IMG/VR virus record: IMGVR_UViG_2534682159_000017
Source of the DNA: a virus
Lineage: Duplodnaviria; Heunggongvirae; Uroviricota; Caudoviricetes
Reading direction: 5' to 3' (one strand)
Length of the DNA: 9,381 nucleotides
Shown here: piece after piece, positions 1 through 8,842 of the stretch
How the letters are laid out: each line of letters begins with the position of its first letter
Position numbering within the stretch: position 1 is the stretch's first letter
Notes under the pieces: generated by a model
The model's database searches: none
The model's input: the letters and a program-made list of their open reading frames with translations, nothing else
Told to the model about the DNA's origin: nothing
Made by a program: the position numbers and the translations under genes

Positions 1-1242
1 ATGGCGAGAAAAACACCCCCATTAACCACAGTACAGATCAAAGCAGCCAGACCAGCAGAAAAGGAATACACCCTACAGGACGGCGGAGGGCTTTTTCTCC
101 TGATCAAACCGTCCGGATCAAAACTCTGGAGATTTTCCTACTACCGACCATCGGACAAAAAAAGAATATTGCTGAGTTTTGGATCGCTTGATGATGTTTC
201 CCTGGCTGATGCCAGAAAACGCCGTAGCGAGTACAGGGCGTTAATTCGTGCCGGAACTGACCCGCAGGACCACGAGAGGCAAAAAAGAGAGACAGAGGCC
301 AGAAGACAAGGGAACACGTTCGAAAATGTGGCAACAGCATGGTACCAGGTGAAAATCAGCCAGAATCTGGCCCCCAATACGATTAAAGACATCTGGCGAT
401 CGCTGGAAAAATATGTATTCCCGTTCATCGGCAACACGCCAATAGACACCCTGACCGCTCGCAGGTTCGTTGAGGTGCTTACCCCCATCAAGGAACGTGG
501 CAACCTGGAAACGCTCAAGCGAGTTTTACAGCGTATAAATGAGGTAATGGATTACGCCGCCAATAGTGGGATGATTGATGCCAATCCGGCTATGAATGTG
601 CGTAAGGCGTTCCCCTCCCCTGTAAAAAAACATATGCCAACAATCCGCCCCGAACAGCTGCCGGAGCTTATGCAGGCTTTATCAGTATCGGCAACAGAAC
701 GGCAGACCAGATTACTGATTGAATGGCAGTTACTGACCGTAACCCGTCCCGTTGAAGCATCGTCGGCACGCTGGGAAGAAATCGACATGGAAGCGCAACG
801 CTGGACCATACCCGCCGGACGCATGAAGATGCGCCGCGACCACGTTATCCCGCTTTGTGACCAGGCTATGGCAGTGCTGGAGGCTATGAAACCAATCAGC
901 CACCACCGCGATTATGTTTTCCCGAGTCTGAAAGACCCACAGCAGCCGATGAACAGCCAGACCGCTAACGCAGCATTACGACGCATGGGATTCGCTGGCG
1001 TGCTGGTGTCTCATGGATTACGCGCCATATTCAGCACAGCAGCGAACGAAGAAGGCTTTGAGCCGGACGTAATAGAGGCCGCACTTGCCCACGTCGACAC
1101 CAACGAAGTCAGACGGGCATACAACCGGAGCAACTACATAGAAAAACGCATCGTGCTTATGCGCTGGTGGGGCGAATTTGTCGAGGCTGCGGCGACGGGC
1201 GTAACCCTCGCCAGTGGTAAAAGGGGTATCCGAGCCGTTTAG
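1..1242 (+). CDS. int: Tyrosine recombinase / site-specific integrase, P4-like family
   Basis: 413-aa ORF. N-terminus (TLQDGGGLFLLIKPSGSKLWRFSYY) matches the P4-integrase-type arm-binding domain. C-terminus has catalytic-domain motifs (HVIPLCDQA, HGLRAIFSTAA, RRAYNRSNY with the tyrosine). ATG is at window position 1 and stop TAG at 1240-1242; upstream context cannot be seen. Confidence 0.93.
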   Translation: MARKTPPLTTVQIKAARPAEKEYTLQDGGGLFLLIKPSGSKLWRFSYYRPSDKKRILLSFGSLDDVSLADARKRRSEYRALIRAGTDPQDHERQKRETEARRQGNTFENVATAWYQVKISQNLAPNTIKDIWRSLEKYVFPFIGNTPIDTLTARRFVEVLTPIKERGNLETLKRVLQRINEVMDYAANSGMIDANPAMNVRKAFPSPVKKHMPTIRPEQLPELMQALSVSATERQTRLLIEWQLLTVTRPVEASSARWEEIDMEAQRWTIPAGRMKMRRDHVIPLCDQAMAVLEAMKPISHHRDYVFPSLKDPQQPMNSQTANAALRRMGFAGVLVSHGLRAIFSTAANEEGFEPDVIEAALAHVDTNEVRRAYNRSNYIEKRIVLMRWWGEFVEAAATGVTLASGKRGIRAV

Positions 1243-1738: not shown

Positions 1739-1945
1739 ATGGAAGCAATCAAAAAAGTCATCTTTCGCCAGGAAGTAAAAAAACTTATCCACATTAAGGC
1801 AGACAGCACGCTGCAAAGCATGATCAACGCCGGAGAATTCCCGCAGGGTTTTCGTGTCGGTTTGCGCCGTCGCGGATGGTATGAGGAAGACGTAATCGCA
1901 TGGATGAAAGAACGCGAACAAGAAGCGCGCGGAACGACCGCTTAA
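1739..1945 (+). CDS. alpA: AlpA-family phage transcriptional regulator (small MerR-like HTH, excisionase-like)
   Basis: 68-aa ORF; SD GAGG at 1726-1729, 9 nt before the ATG. Sequence pattern typical of AlpA/Vis-type prophage regulators (IHIKADSTLQSMINAGEFPQGFRVGLRRRGWYEEDVIAWM). Position directly after a P4-type integrase is canonical. Confidence 0.88.
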   Translation: MEAIKKVIFRQEVKKLIHIKADSTLQSMINAGEFPQGFRVGLRRRGWYEEDVIAWMKEREQEARGTTA

Positions 1946-2066
1946 CATATATAGGGCAAATGATGAACATAAAAAAAGCGGCCCCGAAATGGAGCCACCT
2001 TTCTGAACAATTAACCCGCTGCGCCGTATGTGTCAACAATCATAAGCCCGGGCATGATAACCGCGA

Positions 2067-2270
2067 TCAGGCTGGTGGGCAATTATCTTGCTTGTTGGGG
2101 CCGTATTGTGCTGCCATTTTCATCCGTTCGGAACGTGAATATTTTTTTAGAAACTCATCAAGGACAAAAGCGCATGGTGCGAATCTTTCTGATTCATGCT
2201 CGAGCGCCATATTTTCGTGCTCTCTGTTCGTTTTTTGCGATGGTGTATTGGTTGATTCTTTGTTGGTCAT
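2067..2270 (-). CDS. Possible small hypothetical protein downstream of the RHH gene (67 aa; 47 aa if started at the internal Met)
   Basis: ORF sits on the same strand 57 bp downstream of the RHH stop. Weak SD, low-complexity N-terminus, no recognisable domain. Listed only because it is the one non-shadow ORF in the 380-bp gap between alpA and the RHH gene. Confidence 0.2.
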   Translation of the reverse strand: MTNKESTNTPSQKTNREHENMALEHESERFAPCAFVLDEFLKKYSRSERMKMAAQYGPNKQDNCPPA

Positions 2271-2327
2271 TGTGTGTACCTGTAAAGCAATGCGCCGGAG
2301 TTCCTCACGCCACGGCGCTGATAGTAA

Positions 2328-2504
2328 TTATTCTTTTGATTCTATGCCGCGTTTATCCAACTCACGGCGCAAAAGCCTTTTTATCCATCCTGAGCGGTTA
2401 TCATCGCCATCTTCTTTCATGGCGATGCTTAAGCGTTCGAATAAGTCAGCATCAAGACGAAGCTGTACGGAAAACCTTTCCTTTTTGTTGTCATTGGTTG
2501 ACAT
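2328..2504 (-). CDS. Arc/MetJ-type ribbon-helix-helix DNA-binding protein (58 aa), candidate repressor
   Basis: Reverse-complement translation MSTNDNKKERFSVQLRLDADLFERLSIAMKEDGDDNRSGWIKRLLRRELDKRGIESKE. Beta-strand (RFSVQLRL), helix A, and helix B beginning with the RS/G motif follow the Arc/Mnt/CopG layout. SD GAGG lies 7 nt upstream of the ATG on the - strand. The 174-aa ORF in the track (2328-2852) is an upstream extension through promoter sequence and is not supported. Confidence 0.6.
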   Translation of the reverse strand: MSTNDNKKERFSVQLRLDADLFERLSIAMKEDGDDNRSGWIKRLLRRELDKRGIESKE

Positions 2505-2556
2505 TGTATACCTCGAGTATAATAATGGCCTTACGGTGACAATGTATACCAATGAC
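2490..2556. promoter_or_regulatory. Divergent promoter/operator region between the RHH gene (leftward) and the rep operon (rightward)
   Basis: + strand: -35 TTGACA (2498-2503), 17-bp spacer, -10 AATAAT (2521-2526); TATAAT also present at 2518-2523. Direct repeats TGACATTGTATACC (2499-2512) and TGACAATGTATACC (2537-2550) sit over the -35 and around the predicted +1. Inverted flanks GTCATTGG (2490-2497) and CCAATGAC (2549-2556). The RHH start codon is the complement of 2502-2504, inside the -35. Confidence 0.5.
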
Positions 2557-2630
2557 ACCACAAAAGCAAAGCCCGCTGGCGCTATGAACACCAACGGGCT
2601 TCTAACCAACAACGTAAACGAGGAGCCGTT

Positions 2631-3191
2631 ATGGTTGCCGTAAATCATATACCACACCTTGTACACACACAAACGGCCTTTGTGTGGCGTTTTCTGGCCC
2701 TGAATATCGGAGAAAAAAACCAGTTGATCGCCAGTGTCGAAAATAGCTATGATTCCCGCGCACCTCATAAAACGGGTGCCGGGATTGGCGTCCTGGGCAA
2801 AACTGAAGCGCATAACACGCGCCCCGCGTGTTTTTTTGTGCCGCATAGTCACACCTTATCAATGGTGGGCTGTACGGGGGCGGAGCAATCCGCGCCGGTT
2901 TCTTCAGTGTCCGGTTACGCCAACCCTGTACAGTCCGCCACCAGCGAAATTGGCGTTTCCGGTGGCGGTTATCTTAACCACACTGAGGAGGCTGCCAACA
3001 TGGCTACTATCCCTACCCTTGTACATTCTCAAACCGCCTTTCTCTGGCGCTTTATCATCTTTGGCGCGTCAGAACATCAAATCATCCACGTAACCGCCTG
3101 GACGGAACGCGAAGCGCGTAACCGTTGCCCGTCCGGTTGTGTCGCTGTATTCGCCGCCCGTATTCGCCAGGGGGAAACCTATGCACAATAA
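2631..3191 (+). CDS. Hypothetical protein with internal tandem duplication (186 aa); first gene of the rightward operon
   Basis: Strong SD GAGGAG (2620-2625) 5 nt before the ATG; stop overlaps the next gene start (ATGCACAATAA). Two homologous segments (IPHLVHTQTAFVWRFLAL... and IPTLVHSQTAFLWRFIIF...) differ partly by synonymous third-position changes, which argues for coding. No family recognised. Confidence 0.5.
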   Translation: MVAVNHIPHLVHTQTAFVWRFLALNIGEKNQLIASVENSYDSRAPHKTGAGIGVLGKTEAHNTRPACFFVPHSHTLSMVGCTGAEQSAPVSSVSGYANPVQSATSEIGVSGGGYLNHTEEAANMATIPTLVHSQTAFLWRFIIFGASEHQIIHVTAWTEREARNRCPSGCVAVFAARIRQGETYAQ

Positions 3192-3645
3192 AACCACACC
3201 GGACGCAACCGCCGCCGCGCTCACTACGCTGATGCACGCGCTGATTGATATTTCTGTTATTGCTGACATGGCGCATAAGCACGCCACCAGTGAAACAGAA
3301 TATGCCGGGGCTTTCGTCCCTCATTCGCTGGCGGTTATGCAACTTAGTGCTGATATGGCGCTGAATGAGGCCAAAGCCATCCTGATTGCTGATTGTGAAA
3401 ATGGGGGGGTTATGCGTGATGATCGTTTTAATTCCCTGAAACAGGAATTTTCCGGCGTTCCTGATGATGCGGCTGATGCGCTTTCGTCAATGCCAGAACT
3501 TATTAGAGCGGCTTTTTTCTTACTTTCCACGAGAGAATATAAATCAACGGGGCTTGATGTACTGAATATCGCCGCCGATTATGCGGAATATGTGGCAGAG
3601 GCTCGTTACAGAAGAAAATTTCCTGAGGATGTAAGCCATGCGTGA
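3181..3645 (+). CDS. Hypothetical protein (154 aa from the ATG at 3181; the track ORF begins at an upstream GTG at 3139)
   Basis: SD AGGGGG (3169-3174) 6 nt before the ATG at 3181. Start overlaps the upstream stop and the stop overlaps the downstream start (ATGCGTGA). Predicted helical; no recognisable family. Confidence 0.6.
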   Translation: MHNKTTPDATAAALTTLMHALIDISVIADMAHKHATSETEYAGAFVPHSLAVMQLSADMALNEAKAILIADCENGGVMRDDRFNSLKQEFSGVPDDAADALSSMPELIRAAFFLLSTREYKSTGLDVLNIAADYAEYVAEARYRRKFPEDVSHA

Positions 3646-3876: not shown

Positions 3877-4176
3877 ATGAAACTTAAATATTCTGGCTTA
3901 ACTGCCAGTGGCAACACTCACCCTAAATTTACGCGCGGTGATATTTACCGCGACCAGTACGGCGGTACGGTAATGATTAAGGGCGTGGCGGGACGGTGCG
4001 TAACTTACCGCCGTGAAGGTTACGAATATGATTGCGTGATGCCTGTTTATCAGTTCCGGCGTGATTTTTCTCTGGTACAGACCGCGCCGCATAACGTGCC
4101 CACCAGCAACTCCAGGGCACGGGCAAACATCCAGAAGCTGAAAACCATGATTAACGGATTCAGGGGTAAAAAATGA
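3877..4176 (+). CDS. Hypothetical protein (99 aa)
   Basis: SD GGAGA (3863-3867) 9 nt before the ATG; stop overlaps the rep start as ATGA at 4173-4176. No recognisable family. Confidence 0.6.
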   Translation: MKLKYSGLTASGNTHPKFTRGDIYRDQYGGTVMIKGVAGRCVTYRREGYEYDCVMPVYQFRRDFSLVQTAPHNVPTSNSRARANIQKLKTMINGFRGKK

Positions 4177-5582
4177 AACTGGCACCGAACGTAAAACGAT
4201 TACCGAAAGATAAATACACCGATGCGATTATTTTTGCGGGTATTGATGCTCATTCATTCGCAGAGCATTACATCATTGCACAGGCCAAAAAAGCAGGCGA
4301 TCCAGTCCCTCCCGTTTATCTGGGGCGTTATCAGTTAAGCGAACTGGATAACCTCCAGATTGTTGATGATGGGCGATACAGGGCGACGGTGATACGCGCC
4401 GGAAATATTGAAGAGCCGCAGCTGTTAACCATCGCCACGAAACTGGCGATCGCCGGAGTCCAGGAGGCGCGGCTACTTTCTGAAAATTTCGAATTGCTGG
4501 AGGAATGGAGCGACCAGCTTCCACGGCTTAGGGAGGCATGGGAACGCGGGGAAAGCCTGGTCATGAAAAAAATCCCCCAGCGAAAAACCACGCTACCGAT
4601 GAGCGTTGGATCTACCGGATACGACACACAGCTTGATTACGTGGTAAAGGGGATTATTCCGGCATCGTCGCTATGCAGCATATACGGGGCGAGCGGTTCC
4701 TATAAATCATTCCTTGCCGGATCGTGGGCGTGTCACGTTTCCACGGGCCGCCAGTGGGGAGGCCGCAGGGTGGCGCATGGTGCGGTTCTCTATGTGGTTG
4801 GTGAAGGCGGTATCGGCGTTCCGCGTCGTGTAAAAGCCTGGGAGGTTGTGCACGGTGAGCAGGTGAAAAATCTGTATCTGGTAAACCGTCCCATCTTTCC
4901 GGCGGTCCCGCTTGATGTTGATGAAATGGTTATCGCTGCCCGTCAGGTGGAGCGGGAAACGGGTAAACCTGTACGCATGATTATTCTGGATACGCTGGCG
5001 CGTTGCTTTGGTGGGAATGATGAAAATGATTCCCGTGATATGGGGGCGTTTATCCGTGGTTGTGACGAACTGAAACGGCGCACAGGGGCCACGGTGCTGG
5101 TGGTTCACCATTCCGGCAAGGATGAGACGAAAGGCGCGCGCGGTTCCAGTGCATTTCGTGCTTCGCTGGATGCTGAATACCGGATACGCAGAGAGGACGC
5201 AGGCAGCGAAGCGCTGGTTATCTCATGCACCAAAATGAAGGACGCGGAGGAACTCAAAGAAGCCGCATATGACTTACGCGTGGTGGAGCTTTTTACCGAC
5301 GCTGACGGGGAGTTAATCACGTCGCTGGTGGTGGTGGATAAGCCGCGCCCTCCCGTTGAACTGGAGCGCATCGAGGAGGCAGGGAACAAGACGGAGAATC
5401 ACGCCGCGCTATGGCAGTGCATCAGAACACGAACAGCACACGGGGAGGCGTGCACTATCGCCCTTCTCCGCGACGATATGAAAAAGCTGGGGTATGAGAT
5501 GAAGCACTTCCGGCGCTGGCTGTACAAGCTGGAAAATGATGGCGTAATCGTTATTGATGGTGATGACGTGCGCCCGCTGTAA
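4173..5582 (+). CDS. Replication initiator/helicase-like ATPase, RepA-like AAA_25 / RecA-fold family
   Basis: 469-aa ORF. P-loop region IYGASGSYKSFLAG, Walker-B-like MIILDTLARCFGG, and the family-typical LVVHHSGKD motif. Iteron array begins 4 bp after the stop. SD AGGGG 6 nt before the ATG. No primase domain recognised in the N-terminal 150 aa. Confidence 0.88.
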   Translation: MKLAPNVKRLPKDKYTDAIIFAGIDAHSFAEHYIIAQAKKAGDPVPPVYLGRYQLSELDNLQIVDDGRYRATVIRAGNIEEPQLLTIATKLAIAGVQEARLLSENFELLEEWSDQLPRLREAWERGESLVMKKIPQRKTTLPMSVGSTGYDTQLDYVVKGIIPASSLCSIYGASGSYKSFLAGSWACHVSTGRQWGGRRVAHGAVLYVVGEGGIGVPRRVKAWEVVHGEQVKNLYLVNRPIFPAVPLDVDEMVIAARQVERETGKPVRMIILDTLARCFGGNDENDSRDMGAFIRGCDELKRRTGATVLVVHHSGKDETKGARGSSAFRASLDAEYRIRREDAGSEALVISCTKMKDAEELKEAAYDLRVVELFTDADGELITSLVVVDKPRPPVELERIEEAGNKTENHAALWQCIRTRTAHGEACTIALLRDDMKKLGYEMKHFRRWLYKLENDGVIVIDGDDVRPL

Positions 5583-6761: not shown

Positions 6762-6956
6762 ATGCCAGAGAACAACACCAGAAAGCCGGATAAAAGTGCC
6801 ACGGTACACATAGACGCCGGAACTATGGAGAAGATCGAACGCTATCAGCAGTTCATCAAAGATAATCACCCGGGTATGCCAGTGCCCACGAAAGGACAAA
6901 TCACACGCAGCGCGGTTGAATACTGGTACAGGGCAACGTTAGGAGCCTGGCTATGA
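6762..6956 (+). CDS. Small protein with a possible ribbon-helix-helix-like fold, translationally coupled to the protease-capsid gene (64 aa from the ATG at 6762; the track ORF begins at 6729)
   Basis: SD GGAGG (6750-6754) 7 nt before the ATG at 6762. Stop overlaps the capsid-gene start (ATGA at 6953-6956). Fold call rests only on the pattern SATVHIDAGTMEKIERY...GQITRSAVEYWY and is weak. Confidence 0.5.
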   Translation: MPENNTRKPDKSATVHIDAGTMEKIERYQQFIKDNHPGMPVPTKGQITRSAVEYWYRATLGAWL

Positions 6957-8842
6957 AAACATGGTTTTCCATTAAGGCTATGGCAGATGTTGTACATGTG
7001 CGCATTTATGACGAGATCGGCGGGTACGGTGTAAAAGCATCGGCACTTACTGACGAGATCAACGCGTGTGGTAATGCGTCTGAAATCCATCTTCGCATCC
7101 ATTCACCTGGTGGCGACATCTTTGAAGGGCTGGCTATCTATAACGCTCTGAAAAATCATCCGGCAAAAAAAATCGTACACATTGAAGGCATGGCGGCTTC
7201 TATGGCGTCGTTTATTGCCATGTGTGGAGATCACATCGTTATGCCTGAAAACGCGATGATGATGATACATGCCCCCCGTGGTGTTACTGCCGGAGTGTCG
7301 GGCGACGTTCGCCGCTTTGCTGATCTGATGGACAAGCTGGGCGACACGATGGCAGAAACCTATGCCGGAAGAACGGGCAGGAGCAAACAGGAGATCACCT
7401 CAATGATGGAGGCGGAAACCTGGATGGATGGCAATGAGTGTAAGGCTAACGGCTTCGCAGATGAGGTTATACCCGCGATTACAGCAATGGCCCGAATTGA
7501 ATCAAAACGAATCGGAGATTTTTCAAATATGCCGGAAAAAATTAAAAGCATGATCAGCCAGAAAACTGGCAGTGGCGAACAGGAACGACTTAACGGAATC
7601 CGTGAATTGTTTGGCACCTTCAACGGAAGATATAACGACCTGGCTATAAGTTGTCTTGCGGATTCAGAATGTAGCGTTGAGAATGCACGCGAACGCCTTT
7701 TACTCGCTATGGGTAAAGAATCAACGCCAACAAACAAAACCACCCCCGCAAATCTTTACTACGCGTACACGGATAACGGCAATATAACTGGCGATGCCAT
7801 GCGTCAGGGGCTTAATGCGCGTCTTGGTCACGAACGGGCCGAACGCGGTAATCCTTACGCCATGATGAGTCTTTTCGATATGGCACAGGCATCATTAACC
7901 CATCGTGGTATAAGCACGGGCAGCTACAGCACACGCTCGCAGATAGTAAACGCGGCATTCACCCACAGCAGCAGCGATTTTACCGATATCCTTGCTGGTG
8001 GCGCTGAAAAATCAGTGCTTGCAGGCTGGGAGCACAGCGGCGAAACATTCCGCCAGTGGACGAAAAAAGGTTCCCTTTCAAACTTCCGGGAAGCCCGCCG
8101 CGTTGGTATGAATGGCTTCTCAACGTTAAACAAAGTGCCGGAAGGGGCAGAATATAAATACATCACCACCAGCGATCGCGGTGAACCCATCGCGCTGGCT
8201 ACTTACGGGAATATTTTCAGCATTACCCGCCAGGCGATAATCAATGATGACCTTGATCAGTTATCAACGGTGCCAATGGCTATGGGCCGTGCAGCATCAA
8301 GAACGGTGGGAAATCTGGTTAATCTGGTGCTTACAGGCAACGTAAAACTTTCTGACGGAATAACGCTGTTTGACAAAAAACACAGCAACCTGATTGAAGC
8401 AGGACTGACAACACCGGGACTTAGTGCAGCACGTCACCTGATGCGCACACAGAAGGACAAAAATGGCGAAGTGCTGAATATTGCGCCTAAATTCCTTTTA
8501 GTTCCGGCAGCACTGGAAGATCGCGCGTTGCAGATGATTAACTCAACCGCACCTTTCGGGGCTGATAAAAACAGCGGGATCTTTAACCCGTACCACAAGC
8601 TACTTGATATCATCGTCGATCCCCGCCTTGATGATATCAGCGAAAAACAATGGTACATGCTTTCCGCACAGGGAACGGACACAATCGAGGTGGCTTATCT
8701 TGATGGCAATGACGAGCCTTACCTTGAACAGCAGGAAGGTTTTATCGTTGACGGCGTGGCCTGGAAAGTCCGTATTGATGCAGGTGTGGCAGCTCTGGAT
8801 TATCGCGGTATGGTCAAATCAGGCGGTACCGATTCACTATGA
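6953..8842 (+). CDS. Fusion protein: ClpP-like (S14) prohead serine protease, N-terminal, joined to an HK97-fold phage major capsid protein, C-terminal
   Basis: 629-aa ORF; SD AGGAG (6941-6945) 7 nt before the ATG. ClpP active-site signatures GMAASMAS (Ser83, codon 7199-7201) and MMMIHAPRG (His106) match ClpP GQAASMG and MIHQP. The C-terminal ~350 aa have capsid-like composition and length. Terminator immediately downstream. Confidence 0.88.
   Translation: MKTWFSIKAMADVVHVRIYDEIGGYGVKASALTDEINACGNASEIHLRIHSPGGDIFEGLAIYNALKNHPAKKIVHIEGMAASMASFIAMCGDHIVMPENAMMMIHAPRGVTAGVSGDVRRFADLMDKLGDTMAETYAGRTGRSKQEITSMMEAETWMDGNECKANGFADEVIPAITAMARIESKRIGDFSNMPEKIKSMISQKTGSGEQERLNGIRELFGTFNGRYNDLAISCLADSECSVENARERLLLAMGKESTPTNKTTPANLYYAYTDNGNITGDAMRQGLNARLGHERAERGNPYAMMSLFDMAQASLTHRGISTGSYSTRSQIVNAAFTHSSSDFTDILAGGAEKSVLAGWEHSGETFRQWTKKGSLSNFREARRVGMNGFSTLNKVPEGAEYKYITTSDRGEPIALATYGNIFSITRQAIINDDLDQLSTVPMAMGRAASRTVGNLVNLVLTGNVKLSDGITLFDKKHSNLIEAGLTTPGLSAARHLMRTQKDKNGEVLNIAPKFLLVPAALEDRALQMINSTAPFGADKNSGIFNPYHKLLDIIVDPRLDDISEKQWYMLSAQGTDTIEVAYLDGNDEPYLEQQEGFIVDGVAWKVRIDAGVAALDYRGMVKSGGTDSL

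Follow-up and report, generated by a model that had tools for sequence, protein, structure and literature searches.

The small ribbon-helix-helix (RHH) protein encoded on the minus strand of the 9,381-nucleotide stretch of DNA analyzed here (the window) is, in the reading we favor and consider reasonably likely, a stand-alone transcription factor that forms the protein half of a portable control cassette; the cassette heads the rightward (early, Icd/replication) operon of an E. coli phage-satellite island, and the protein represses its promoter, P_R. The gene overlaps P_R, the -10 of the promoter is flanked by sequence boxes that change together with the predicted β-strand of the protein, and the RHH strand also carries a conserved RNA structure a short way upstream of the gene (Table 1).

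Table 1. Features of the window that bear on the RHH gene and the rightward operon.
Feature	Position	Strand	Details
int	1-1242		
AlpA/Vis-type HTH gene (alpA)	1739-1945	plus	convergent with orf67 and RHH
orf67	2067-2270	minus	67 aa; small, basic, helical; downstream of RHH
RHH gene	2328-2504	minus	58 codons; ATG at 2504, stop TAA 2330-2328; product 58 aa
Candidate operator O1	2492-2512	plus	CATTGGTTGACATTGT (2492-2507) and direct 14-mer TGACATTGTATACC (2499-2512); covers P_R -35 and RHH start codon
P_R, rightward early promoter	2498-2526	plus	-35 TTGACA 2498-2503, 17-nt spacer, -10 AATAAT 2521-2526
RHH Shine-Dalgarno (SD)	2514-2511	minus	GAGG, 6 nt 5' of RHH ATG; read from the sequence
Candidate RHH promoter	2519-2548	minus	TATACA-18-TATTAT, 9/12
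Candidate operator O2	2537-2556	.	CATTGGTATACATTGT on minus (2539-2554) and direct 14-mer TGACAATGTATACC (2537-2550)
SymR-like structured antisense RNA motif	2548-2643	minus	conserved; predicted
First rightward ORF, Icd-like N-terminal part	2631-2759	plus	SD GAGGAG 2620-2625, ATG 2631
Putative antisense-RNA promoter	2644-2672	minus	TTGTGT-17-TATGAT; -10 at 2649-2644; inside first rightward ORF
isrK-like sRNA element	2760-2836	plus	promoter-like site 2724-2753; intrinsic terminator 2814-2836
C4 antisense (immunity) RNA, P1/P7/P4 type	2858-2945	plus	Rfam RF01695, 77.6 bits against gathering score of 45
Icd-like gene	3000-3191	plus	SD 2987-2993
AAA_25 rep gene	4173-5582		
ClpP-capsid fusion	6953-8842		

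The RHH gene and its family

The RHH gene is real and strong purifying selection acts on its 58-aa product: pN/pS is 0.13 in the RHH frame compared with 0.29-3.9 in the other five frames, and pS reaches 0.77, indicating that synonymous sites are saturated outside the conserved start region. The protein is a member of an unnamed, highly conserved family of which we found 96 homologue clusters across Enterobacterales, 57-58 aa in length and ~80% identical, with 23 invariant columns in the family alignment. The allele of the window is rare in E. coli, window-type RHH being present in 26 of 5426 complete genomes. Members of the family are currently annotated as "hypothetical".

An earlier note, made from the sequence of the window, had called this the only confident minus-strand gene. 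The pN/pS values and the homologues bear out the gene, but not the word "only", as orf67, which the note had described as a weak ORF, is annotated in RefSeq and is a real member of a conserved family, restricted to E. coli. A hairpin at 2292-2318, past the RHH stop codon, is at most a possible RHH terminator, its z-score of -0.87 not being significant and the RNA model missing it.

An RHH-type fold at the superfamily level

The N-terminal stretch ERFSVQLRLD, in which a β-strand is predicted at about residues 10-17 (ERFSVQLRL), shows the alternating polar and hydrophobic pattern of the superfamily and is followed by a helix (19-32), a DGDDN-x-x-G turn of the G-x-S/T/N type and a second helix (37-51). 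An AF2 model (pLDDT 79) has both helices at these residues; the N-terminus of the monomer is not a strand and the β-ribbon is not formed, as expected for an obligate dimer. RHH proteins make up nearly all of the top 45 PDB matches in Foldseek (NikR N-domain, MazE9-N, Arc, CopG, ParD), and every match has an E-value above 0.1; the leader is the NikR N-domain (prob 0.98, rmsd 1.3 Å over 40 residues) and Arc ranks 11 (E = 1.4).

Sequence searches gave weak matches, under their thresholds. Pfam RHH_1 matched with E = 0.021 and 15.2 bits, under its gathering score of 20.5, and the NCBIfam models NikR and YlcI_YnfO_N matched weakly, both under their cut-offs. No Arc-family match at E ≤ 1 was found in Pfam, and a profile search against PDB sequences returned chance-level matches only (NikR, E = 1.1), Arc and Mnt being absent at E ≤ 10. 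Weak scores are to be expected of a domain of 45 residues. Taken together the model and the structural matches support an RHH-type fold, assigned at the level of the RHH (MetJ/Arc) superfamily only, every score lying under the curated or significance thresholds. The check by HMM or structure prediction that the earlier note had suggested is therefore in favor of the fold, with weak scores and on a monomer model; of its label "Arc/Mnt-like RHH", the RHH superfamily is upheld by AF2 and Foldseek, whereas the Pfam and PDB searches do not uphold Arc/Mnt membership by sequence.

The N-terminal RHH domain of NikR is a close fold neighbor, yet the C-terminal nickel-binding domain of NikR is absent here. 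YlcI/YnfO proteins are among the closest neighbors in sequence and fold, and the kinship is suggestive, the family model NF041551 giving 17.2 bits against a cut-off of 30 and the hhalign comparison of the RHH family with a YlcI/YnfO protein (probability 8.7%) falling below demonstration. Elsewhere in E. coli there are islands in which a protein of the YlcI/YnfO type takes this place, together with the same antisense-RNA motif and an orf67-type downstream gene. In the literature on RHH or YlcI/YnfO function in satellites we found no functional study.

Overlap with P_R and allele-specific boxes

TTGACA-17-AATAAT is the sole 11/12 match to a sigma-70 promoter in the 9.4-kb window, all others being 9/12, and transcription from it would start near position 2533. 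The earlier note had placed the RHH start codon within the -35 of this promoter, and the coordinates agree: the start codon (CAT, 2502-2504) overlaps the -35 hexamer, and GGTTGACAT is retained in all but a few of ~25 related loci, synonymous sites of codons 2-3 included. The exceptions are one locus (L034), which has TTGACAA and starts with TTG, and, where paralogues stand in tandem pairs, the downstream copy. For the RHH gene itself simple promoter scans yield two candidates that are mutually incompatible. One (Table 1) overlaps P_R on the opposite strand; the other, seen in most relatives, is TTTACT-18-TACATT, with the invariant AATGTA box as its -10 and a -35-like TTTACT that falls within the tail of the antisense-RNA terminator described below.

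Within the 9.4 kb there are just two occurrences of the 16-nt motif CATTGKNNNACATTGK, at 2492-2507 on the plus strand and at 2539-2554 on the minus strand, against a chance expectation of 0.09, and no further box was found in the window. The same region also contains a direct 14-mer pair and a 31-nt inverted repeat. Part of the inverted symmetry may stem simply from overlapping opposite-strand promoters that share -35-like hexamers, and the O1 arm is also under coding constraint (Met-Ser-Thr). The two boxes, which define the candidate operators O1 and O2, flank the P_R -10; O2 lies just downstream of the P_R -10/+1 and overlaps the -35 or the -10 of the candidate RHH promoter.

The boxes are specific to the allele. 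Alleles with the β-strand ERFSVQLRL carry ACAWTGTATACC boxes, those with ERxVVQLRL carry AATGTACAC boxes, and those with RSP(P/Q)YQMRL, which come from E. coli O111 and from Pmp8, a satellite of Pasteurella, have ATGGTAWWTACC boxes in the same two places, so that one pairing of β-strand and box recurs in E. coli and Pasteurella; the plasmid allele and other paralogues each have their own repeats. Classes I and II of this covariation split by clade, leaving few independent events. O1 lies over the P_R -35 in every allele. As allele-specific boxes occupy the -35 and the +1 region, repression of P_R is the best reading, and the covariation of box and β-strand supports an RHH protein that acts as a local and probably autoregulated repressor of the rightward promoter.

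A companion SymR-like antisense RNA

Sequence comparison establishes a conserved RNA structure on the minus strand, upstream of the RHH gene. The consensus folds with -22.8 kcal/mol on the minus strand compared with -8.1 on the plus strand; 95.9% of its cells are paired and 12 pairs carry double changes, a result that 0 of 500 shuffles reach. The strand signal agrees (13 G-U and 7 mismatches on the minus strand versus 1 G-U and 19 mismatches on the plus strand), as do the fold z-scores in the window, -4.07 and -1.31, respectively. The structure is composed of a small hairpin (2611-2614 with 2627-2630 in the window) and a 16-bp intrinsic terminator (2602-2568) followed by a U-rich tail. Its 5' end is antisense to the ATG of the first rightward ORF and to the SD in front of it, and this ORF is the presumed target. 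A -10-like hexamer is found at a fixed distance in ~19 of 22 loci and the covariance model (CM) detects the motif beside every RHH allele tested; expression as an antisense RNA from the putative promoter is what these features predict.

Full-length matches to Rfam SymR (RF01809) were obtained at three relatives (L018, L024 and L032) with 34-39 bits, less than the gathering threshold (61); no match to Rfam SymR came from the window copy. The motif is not in Rfam. An estimate of its prevalence in E. coli by BLAST (18 genomes) was discarded, as the search is too insensitive for a diverged 98-nt RNA.

RNA elements of the rightward leader

The isrK-like element holds C4 target copies b1 (2785-2791) and a1 (2802-2808), and target sites b2 (2950-2956) and a2 (2980-2986) abut the SD of the Icd-like gene. 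Between them lies a C4 RNA that scores above gathering with its CM and whose a and b loops are complementary to sites upstream of and at the icd ribosome-binding site. As most relatives of the RHH cassette are without C4 and isrK, RHH and C4 are, by this distribution, separable modules. Transcripts from P_R may stop at the isrK-type terminator, short of the replication genes, unless they are antiterminated, and repression of P_R thus need not control replication or packaging. Several long ORFs have been called in this region, namely an "ash family" pseudogene, the "Icd-like protein" of 540 aa and PHROG 29966; they probably run across RNA genes or along the opposite strand of genuine genes.

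Island context

A near-identical island resides at tRNA-Pro between yejM and yejO. The island of the window has int, alpA, primase/rep and capsid-related genes in the order of Gram-negative PICIs at a tRNA, and genes for tail and lysis are absent; the ~10-kb island shows neither a terminase nor a portal gene and so is not a complete cf-PICI. In Klebsiella, E. coli and Pasteurella, RHH belongs to the core genes of a family of int-alpA-RHH-primase-capsid islands. The RHH cassette also extends beyond satellites: it heads variable divergent operons in PICI-like islands, Mu-like remnants, a P2-like prophage (a moron operon) and, on an IncY plasmid, a BREX operon.

Proposed mechanism

Based on these features we propose that RHH dimers bind the two allele-specific boxes around the P_R -10. 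Binding at O1 would cover the P_R -35 and the start codon of RHH itself, and binding at O2 would cover the +1 region and RHH's own promoter, so that occupancy would shut P_R and limit the synthesis of RHH. A second, independent layer would come from the SymR-like cis-antisense RNA, which is encoded a little upstream of RHH on its strand and closed by the strong intrinsic terminator; through its complementarity to the SD and ATG of the first rightward ORF, this RNA would block transcripts that escape the first layer. In the island of the window the P1-type C4 RNA ahead of the Icd-like gene forms a third layer. DNA binding, the sign of the regulation, autoregulation, expression of the antisense RNA and the lifting of repression by a helper phage are the parts of this scheme that we infer.

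Alternative explanations

A 247-codon open frame on the plus strand (1900-2643) covers orf67, RHH and the intergenic region, and several relatives have comparable long frames, one of which RefSeq annotates as the 540-aa "Icd-like protein". That the real product is encoded by this frame, antisense to RHH, and that the RHH ORF is not the gene, is hardly credible: the lowest pN/pS is that of the RHH frame, the antisense frame sharing its third positions has 0.29, as for a shadow ORF, and the long frame is missing in many relatives (L003-L005, L015-L017). Its translation is rich in Cys, Ser and Arg and is without family match, whereas the RHH frame folds as RHH. The plus-strand ORF was ruled out as a real gene by pN/pS and its poor conservation. 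The suggestion of the earlier note that RHH might be the antitoxin of a type II addiction module with orf67 as toxin is in keeping with a gene order like that of antitoxin and toxin (a small RHH gene, 57 nt and a small ORF on the same strand), with the RHH antitoxins MazE9-N, ParD and PrpA among the Foldseek matches and with a small RHH-type gene usually preceding orf67-family genes in E. coli. Yet orf67 homologues are found at 0 of 16 RHH loci of other genera, in Klebsiella islands (hundreds of contigs) RHH is directly convergent with alpA with nothing between them, and among complete E. coli genomes orf67 is present in at least 128, compared with 26 for RHH. The orf67 family follows three different RHH types (window, O111 and YlcI/YnfO), which misfits a co-evolved toxin-binding tail, and the RHH protein is essentially a bare 45-residue domain (core at about residues 10-51) with a variable tail of 7 residues and no toxin-binding extension. 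Nor does orf67 carry a toxin signature: it has no toxin-family match in Pfam, NCBIfam, PHROGs or PADLOC, and its model, three helices with a pLDDT of 69, has no fold match in PDB. A PADLOC scan of the small ORFs gave no defence-system match, a spurious weak Cas8g match to orf67 being set aside. Orf67 is thus a real gene but no partner specific to the RHH of the window, and we regard the antitoxin alternative as highly improbable.

The earlier note had preferred a master repressor silencing replication and packaging genes until a helper phage arrives. The repressor position at the rightward promoter is supported by the allele-specific boxes, but not the island-wide role, the box being confined to P_R within the window and RNA layers intervening before rep. 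A sole master repressor like Stl, inactivated by a protein of the helper phage, would suit a gene placed on the strongest promoter of the island, ahead of the operon with the rep gene, and in SaPI Stl and PICI Rpr, too, the gene is divergent from the replication and packaging operon, the place expected of the repressor (PMC6092414). Gram-negative PICIs are without an identified global repressor, whether any exists being described as unclear (PMC6092414), which would leave room for such a function. However, Stl is a large HTH protein inactivated by binding helper proteins, whereas the 58-aa RHH has no obvious partner-binding domain and no helper or anti-repressor partner of it is inferable. In addition, the antisense-RNA target, the isrK terminator at 2814-2836 and the C4 RNA with its targets at the icd ribosome-binding site all lie between P_R and rep, and the Gram-negative PICI that has been studied is induced via the activator AlpA, the experimentally known switch (PMC6092414). 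The same RHH cassette heads non-satellite operons (plasmid BREX, P2-like moron, Mu-like remnants), giving it the look of a generic local switch and not of a sensor peculiar to satellites, and we consider the Stl-like reading unlikely. RHH could also bind the boxes and act mainly on its own strand, by autoregulation, by control of read-through at the antisense-RNA terminator, by setting the balance of the antisense-RNA and RHH promoters or by activation through exclusion, without being primarily a repressor of P_R. The candidate RHH promoter is overlapped by O2, the tail of the antisense-RNA terminator contains the -35-like TTTACT, occupancy of one of the overlapping P_R and RHH promoters excludes the other, and Mnt of P22 indirectly activates Pmnt. 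The position of O1 over the P_R -35 in every allele is, however, the classic position for repression, and small stand-alone RHH proteins are overwhelmingly repressors, hence a role mainly on its own strand seems doubtful to us, and repression of P_R is the reading we retain.

Significance

AlpA is the only experimentally defined switch of Gram-negative PICI-type satellites (PMC6092414). The RHH family, with its predicted operators and conserved antisense RNA, is a testable candidate for keeping islands silent and a toxic Icd-like gene off, and the covariation of β-strand and box may supply a few repressor-operator pairs that are orthogonal by nature. Annotation also gains from a family listed as "hypothetical", an RNA motif outside Rfam and long ORFs that have probably been misread. 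A wider and rather speculative idea, to which we give little weight, is that RHH and the SymR-like RNA of its strand make up an "immunity cassette" of two layers, portable and specific to the allele. It would be the repressor system that Gram-negative PICI-type satellites have seemed to lack, and would also switch defence or moron operons on plasmids and prophages. The island would be induced when helper phages, or AlpA-driven read-through antisense to RHH, disable the cassette, and the pairs of β-strand and operator would define the immunity groups of co-resident satellites.

Comparison with known systems

In immI of phage P22 the RHH repressors Mnt and Arc and the sar antisense RNA control Pant and ant. 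As in P22, a small RHH gene is divergent from a strong promoter and overlaps it, the promoter driving an early function that may be harmful, and a short cis-antisense RNA (a predicted one here) spans the ribosome-binding site of one gene of the operon under control, a likeness that extends to a presumed immunity function of the maintenance type. Unlike P22, the protein described here has no detectable Arc/Mnt membership by sequence, its similarity to Arc being one of fold only, and the -35 contains its start codon. The predicted antisense RNA is on the RHH strand directly upstream of RHH, with the first ORF (Icd-like) and not an antirepressor as its presumed target, and in place of the one compact operator of P22 there are two candidate boxes set apart, one on either side of the -10.

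The window also holds a bona fide C4 RNA, as in P1/P7 immI (c4 RNA-icd-ant) and the CI RNA immunity of P4, in which immunity is RNA-based. No divergent RHH gene is known at the operon promoter of the P1/P7 immI and P4 CI systems.

A parallel for the RNA is symE of E. coli, in which the transcriptional repressor LexA is paired with the cis-antisense SymR (PMC1891008). The RNA predicted here would resemble SymR in being transcribed from a promoter within its target ORF, in beginning antisense to the ATG and in closing with a hairpin. The target here is Icd-like or of another type and not of the SymE/AbrB fold, and the candidate protein repressor, RHH, is encoded by the cassette itself, unlike LexA.

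Finally, in plasmid pMV158 the 45-aa RHH protein CopG and the antisense RNAII act on the copG-repB operon (PMC4485353). The two arrangements share a minimal RHH repressor (a candidate here) at the promoter and a terminator-ended countertranscript blocking translation initiation, as would the antisense RNA here, and in both the operon runs on to a replication gene. However, copG is co-transcribed with repB and not divergent from it, pMV158 is a Gram-positive rolling-circle plasmid, the two are not related in sequence, and here the isrK and C4 RNA layers are interposed between the promoter and rep.

Results

The window represents a small island of the phage-satellite type (Table), and a near-identical copy of it lies at tRNA-Pro in the yejM/yejO interval of E. 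coli O178:H19 2012C-4431. The replication modules of these two otherwise near-identical islands differ, a 469-aa AAA_25/RepA-type gene in the window versus a 585-aa primase-family gene in 2012C-4431, which is a mosaic exchange. The prohead protease/major capsid fusion is 629 aa long, and no terminase, portal or connector gene was found within the roughly 10 kb of the island; this minimal layout, which is common in Klebsiella, does not match a complete cf-PICI.

Table. Features of the window and their counterparts in related loci (L numbers)
Feature	Position	Strand	Remarks and counterparts
Integrase	1-1242	+	
Small ORF	between integrase and AlpA/Vis-type gene		
AlpA/Vis-type HTH gene	1739-1945	+	
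'Shadow' ORF	1900-2643	+	L030 3403-5025
orf67	2067-2270	-	small gene; L029 3501-3704; L038 3501-3701
Conserved ~45-nt segment	2281-2327		L029 3715-3760, 4385-4440; L038 about 3445-3495
RHH gene	2328-2504	-	small gene; tandem paralogues L014 3801-4168, L016 3713-4165, L017 2450-2814
16-nt motif, first copy	2492-2507	+	
P_R -35	2498-2503	+	TTGACA
P_R -10	2521-2526	+	AATAAT
16-nt motif, second copy	2539-2554	-	
Antisense motif	2548-2643	-	L018 5855-5951; L029 3982-4078, 4853-4948; L035 4858-4955; L037 3858-3953; L038 3064-3161
Terminator-like site	2602..2568	-	16 pairs
Rightward operon		+	Icd-like sequences, DUF4222, AAA_25 replication protein, ClpP-protease/major-capsid fusion
Open frame	2631-3191	+	186 codons
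Hairpin in Icd-like region	2666-2686	+	
isrK-like promoter-like site	2724-2753	+	
isrK-like sRNA element	2760-2836	+	66 bits
b1/a1	2785-2791, 2802-2808		
isrK intrinsic terminator	2814-2836	+	
C4 antisense RNA	2858-2945	+	77.6 bits
b2/a2	2950-2956, 2980-2986		
Icd-like ATG	3000		
AAA_25 replication protein	4173-5582	+	rightward operon; L001 (2012C-4431) primase-family gene 11273-13027
ClpP-like protease/major-capsid fusion	6953-8842	+	rightward operon; L018-L023 48-2223

Sequence comparison indicates that the 58-codon minus-strand frame of the ribbon-helix-helix (RHH) protein, which runs from an ATG at 2504 to a TAA at 2330-2328 with GAGG 6 nt 5' of its start, is a gene. In a comparison of 14 diverged loci, pN/pS was 0.13 in this frame versus 0.29-3.9 in the five others, and a database search returned homologues of 57-58 aa in 96 clusters at ~80% identity, from Escherichia, Klebsiella, Yersinia, Serratia, Morganella, Xenorhabdus, Pectobacterium and other genera, all labelled 'hypothetical' and none of the 96 carrying a Pfam domain. 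The earlier note had placed the start codon of this ORF within the rightward promoter's -35 hexamer; both the frame and the promoter scan bear this out, the ATG (plus-strand CAT, 2502-2504) lying inside the -35 of P_R, whose two hexamers are 17 nt apart and form the sole 11/12 match in the whole window. The same note had called it the only confident minus-strand gene, which does not hold, since orf67, the 67-aa ORF downstream, is annotated in RefSeq, matches PHROG 21027 (E=2e-12) and belongs to a conserved family.

The evidence for the RHH fold is consistent though sub-threshold, as is usual for a 45-residue domain. Pfam RHH_1 matched at E=0.021 (15.2 bits vs. a cut-off of 20.5), NCBIfam NikR and YlcI_YnfO_N matched weakly, and the AF2 model (pLDDT 79) has helices at 19-32 and 37-51 after a strand-patterned N-terminus. 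Foldseek with this model listed almost entirely RHH proteins, the NikR N-domain being best (prob 0.98, rmsd 1.3 A), then MazE9-N, Arc, CopG and ParD, every E-value being >0.1. Structure and HMM matches are concordant on the fold that had been proposed, all at sub-threshold scores. As Pfam and PDB profile searches found no sequence link to Arc or Mnt, the former description 'Arc/Mnt-like' is retained at the superfamily level only. It is probably a new and as yet unnamed representative of a known kind, the RHH repressors of mobile-element early promoters. In the literature searched, neither this family nor YlcI/YnfO had been the subject of a published functional study in satellites.

The window contains exactly two copies of the 16-nt motif CATTGKNNNACATTGK (0.09 expected by chance), one over the P_R -35 and the RHH start codon and the other just beyond the -10/+1; these sequences also make up a direct 14-mer pair, TGACATTGTATACC / TGACAATGTATACC, 38 bp apart, and a 31-nt inverted repeat. 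In related loci GGTTGACAT, a -10 and the second box are kept despite saturated synonymous sites (pS 0.77 in the gene). When alleles are compared, the boxes vary together with the predicted DNA-reading beta-strand of the protein: ERFSVQLRL stands with box ACAWTGTATACC in the window type, ERxVVQLRL with AATGTACAC in most relatives, and RSP(P/Q)YQMRL with ATGGTAWWTACC in the E. coli O111:H8 island and the Pasteurella satellite Pmp8, at the identical two positions in both hosts; the plasmid allele and the paralogues each come with different repeats. These observations are the strongest computational evidence at hand that the RHH protein has its operators in the boxes and that it acts on this promoter pair. 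Part of the box symmetry, however, may stem from promoters that overlap in opposite directions, the left arm is also coding, and independent covariation events are few.

Of all terminator-like sites in the window, the strongest lies on the minus strand directly upstream of the RHH gene. In the comparative analysis, its hairpin pairs with 13 G-U and 7 mismatches on the minus strand versus 1 G-U and 19 mismatches on the plus strand. Minus-strand folds are more stable by 5-14 kcal/mol in nearly every locus (consensus energy -22.8 vs. -8.1), and the window copy folds at -35.2 kcal/mol (z = -4.07) versus -21.5 (z = -1.31). In the motif alignment 95.9% of cells are paired and 12 pairs have both sides changed; none of 500 shuffles matched the observed pairing values, and slid controls were far lower. 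By this comparison the hairpin shows selection on the minus strand. A small hairpin upstream of it shows compensatory changes; the loop is antisense to the Shine-Dalgarno that serves the first rightward ORF, and the antisense of that ORF's start codon forms a further helix. A -10-like hexamer is found at constant spacing, ending 36-38 nt before GGTTAGA in ~19 of 22 loci, whatever protein the overlapping ORF encodes. The covariance model of the motif found one copy beside every RHH allele examined, also in loci outside its training (YlcI/YnfO-type islands, IncY and IncR plasmid copies, the Pasteurella satellite and tandem paralogues). No Rfam family matched at Rfam thresholds; three relatives align end-to-end with SymR at 34-39 bits versus a gathering score of 61. 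SymR is a cis-antisense RNA with its promoter inside symE that, with the repressor LexA, keeps toxic SymE off (PMC1891008). Based on the comparative structure and the SymR alignments, we read the motif as a SymR-like antisense RNA of ~80 nt, predicted to be expressed and to target the translation start at 2620-2633.

The rightward transcript also carries an isrK-like element and a C4 RNA. The C4 loops are complementary to b1/a1 and b2/a2, the latter pair abutting the SD of the Icd-like gene, which is how P1/P7 immI is arranged. With C4 and a terminator between P_R and the rep genes, the island therefore already holds a recognised RNA immunity device. In other genera, 16 RHH loci were checked and neither C4 nor isrK was found at any of them, so they are separable from the cassette (RHH plus antisense motif), which is conserved more widely. 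The 186-codon frame, open for 560 nt, crosses both RNA genes and joins two Icd-like segments; its two ends match PHROG 29966 (188 aa), part of it is an 'ash family' pseudogene in RefSeq, and we regard it as a probable artefact of annotation, arising from RNA genes situated within an open frame. The 'shadow' ORF, antisense to orf67 and RHH, crosses the promoter region and its counterpart is annotated as a 540-aa 'Icd-like protein' in one RefSeq genome; pN/pS and patchy conservation argue against its being a gene. Inside the Icd-like N-terminal coding region, the hairpin CACACAAACGGCCTTTGTGTG, then GCGTTTTCTG, resembles sequences recurring in other Icd-like genes and may be an attenuator or just mirror the conserved HTQT..W.F peptide.

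The cassette is found in int-alpA-RHH-primase-capsid islands of E. coli, Klebsiella and Pasteurella, at the head of divergent operons in Mor-containing Mu-like remnants at different chromosomal sites (L024-L028, L032), flanked by the head-completion and tail-X genes in a P2-like prophage (L031), and divergent from a WYL/BrxR-BREX operon on the IncY plasmid pEC00704_2 (L037 1-4180); some loci hold two cassettes or tandem paralogues. Since it heads such varied divergent operons and occurs in duplicated or tandem loci, the cassette behaves like a local switch that is portable and whose specificity can be exchanged, rather than like a satellite-specific sensor. The tandem diverged paralogues of L014, L016 and L017 (45-50% identity) have the promoter/antisense-RNA region at the upstream copy only.

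Discussion

The RHH protein had alternatively been suggested to be the antitoxin of orf67. orf67 homologues are confined to E. coli (15 clusters), the 16 RHH loci of other genera lack them, and in the abundant Klebsiella islands a convergent alpA directly follows RHH. In complete E. coli genomes RHH is present in 26 versus 128 for orf67 (coverage at least 80%), and the small RHH-type genes preceding orf67 relatives differ, being of the window type, of the diverged type seen in O111, or genes for a YlcI/YnfO protein of 59 aa. The RHH protein has no tail able to bind a toxin, and the orf67 product, a basic protein of probably three helices, matched no toxin family or fold in Pfam, NCBIfam, PHROGs, PADLOC or a PDB fold search. 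Given this distribution, the changing partners, the tail-less protein and the lack of a toxin match, a type II toxin-antitoxin pair is very unlikely and we reject the antitoxin role. If anything, the nearest thing to an addiction-type arrangement is the antisense RNA versus the Icd-like (cell-division inhibitor) ORF, not RHH/orf67.

The small, basic orf67 family (consensus MTNKESTNTPSPARKRRRRKI..EHESERFAPCAF.LE.FLKEY) is invariably found behind the RHH-type gene at the head of the leftward arm, whatever the type of that gene, and ~1400 of 5426 complete E. coli genomes have DNA similarity to at least part of orf67. The ~45-nt segment conserved between the two genes (CCTGTAAAGCAATGCGCCG...CACGGCGCTGAT) looks similar to the sequence flanking the antisense-RNA terminator and is present twice in loci with two cassettes in tandem; it may act as a weak terminator, or as a junction at which recombination exchanges RHH alleles. 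In L003-L005 and L016 a DUF1778/TacA-like RHH antitoxin stands beside a GNAT (TacT-like) protein in an operon divergent from RHH, about 770-1560 nt upstream; judged by sequence, this pair looks like genuine toxin-antitoxin cargo.

Of the new findings, we consider two the most useful: the predicted companion antisense RNA and the covariation of beta-strand and operator. For the mechanism of the cassette, all of which we infer, we lean toward a model in which RHH dimers would bind both candidate operators, O1 (2492-2512) and O2 (2537-2556), occluding the -35 and +1 of P_R and, via O2, the RHH promoter as well; against P_R transcripts that escape, the antisense RNA would act as a silencer at the first ORF and C4, in the window island, as a second one at icd. 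The earlier repressor reading has partial support: position and candidate boxes make the RHH protein a likely local repressor of P_R, whereas the suggested role of 'master repressor' is unproven, with C4 and a terminator standing before the replication genes. AlpA is the known activator of Gram-negative PICIs (PMC6092414), and alpA of the window lies upstream, oriented toward the cassette; that read-through antisense to the RHH gene lifts repression is speculative. The nearest functional precedents are Mnt/Arc with sar of P22, CopG with RNAII of pMV158 (PMC4485353) and LexA with SymR (PMC1891008), which the cassette resembles in logic and not by family membership.
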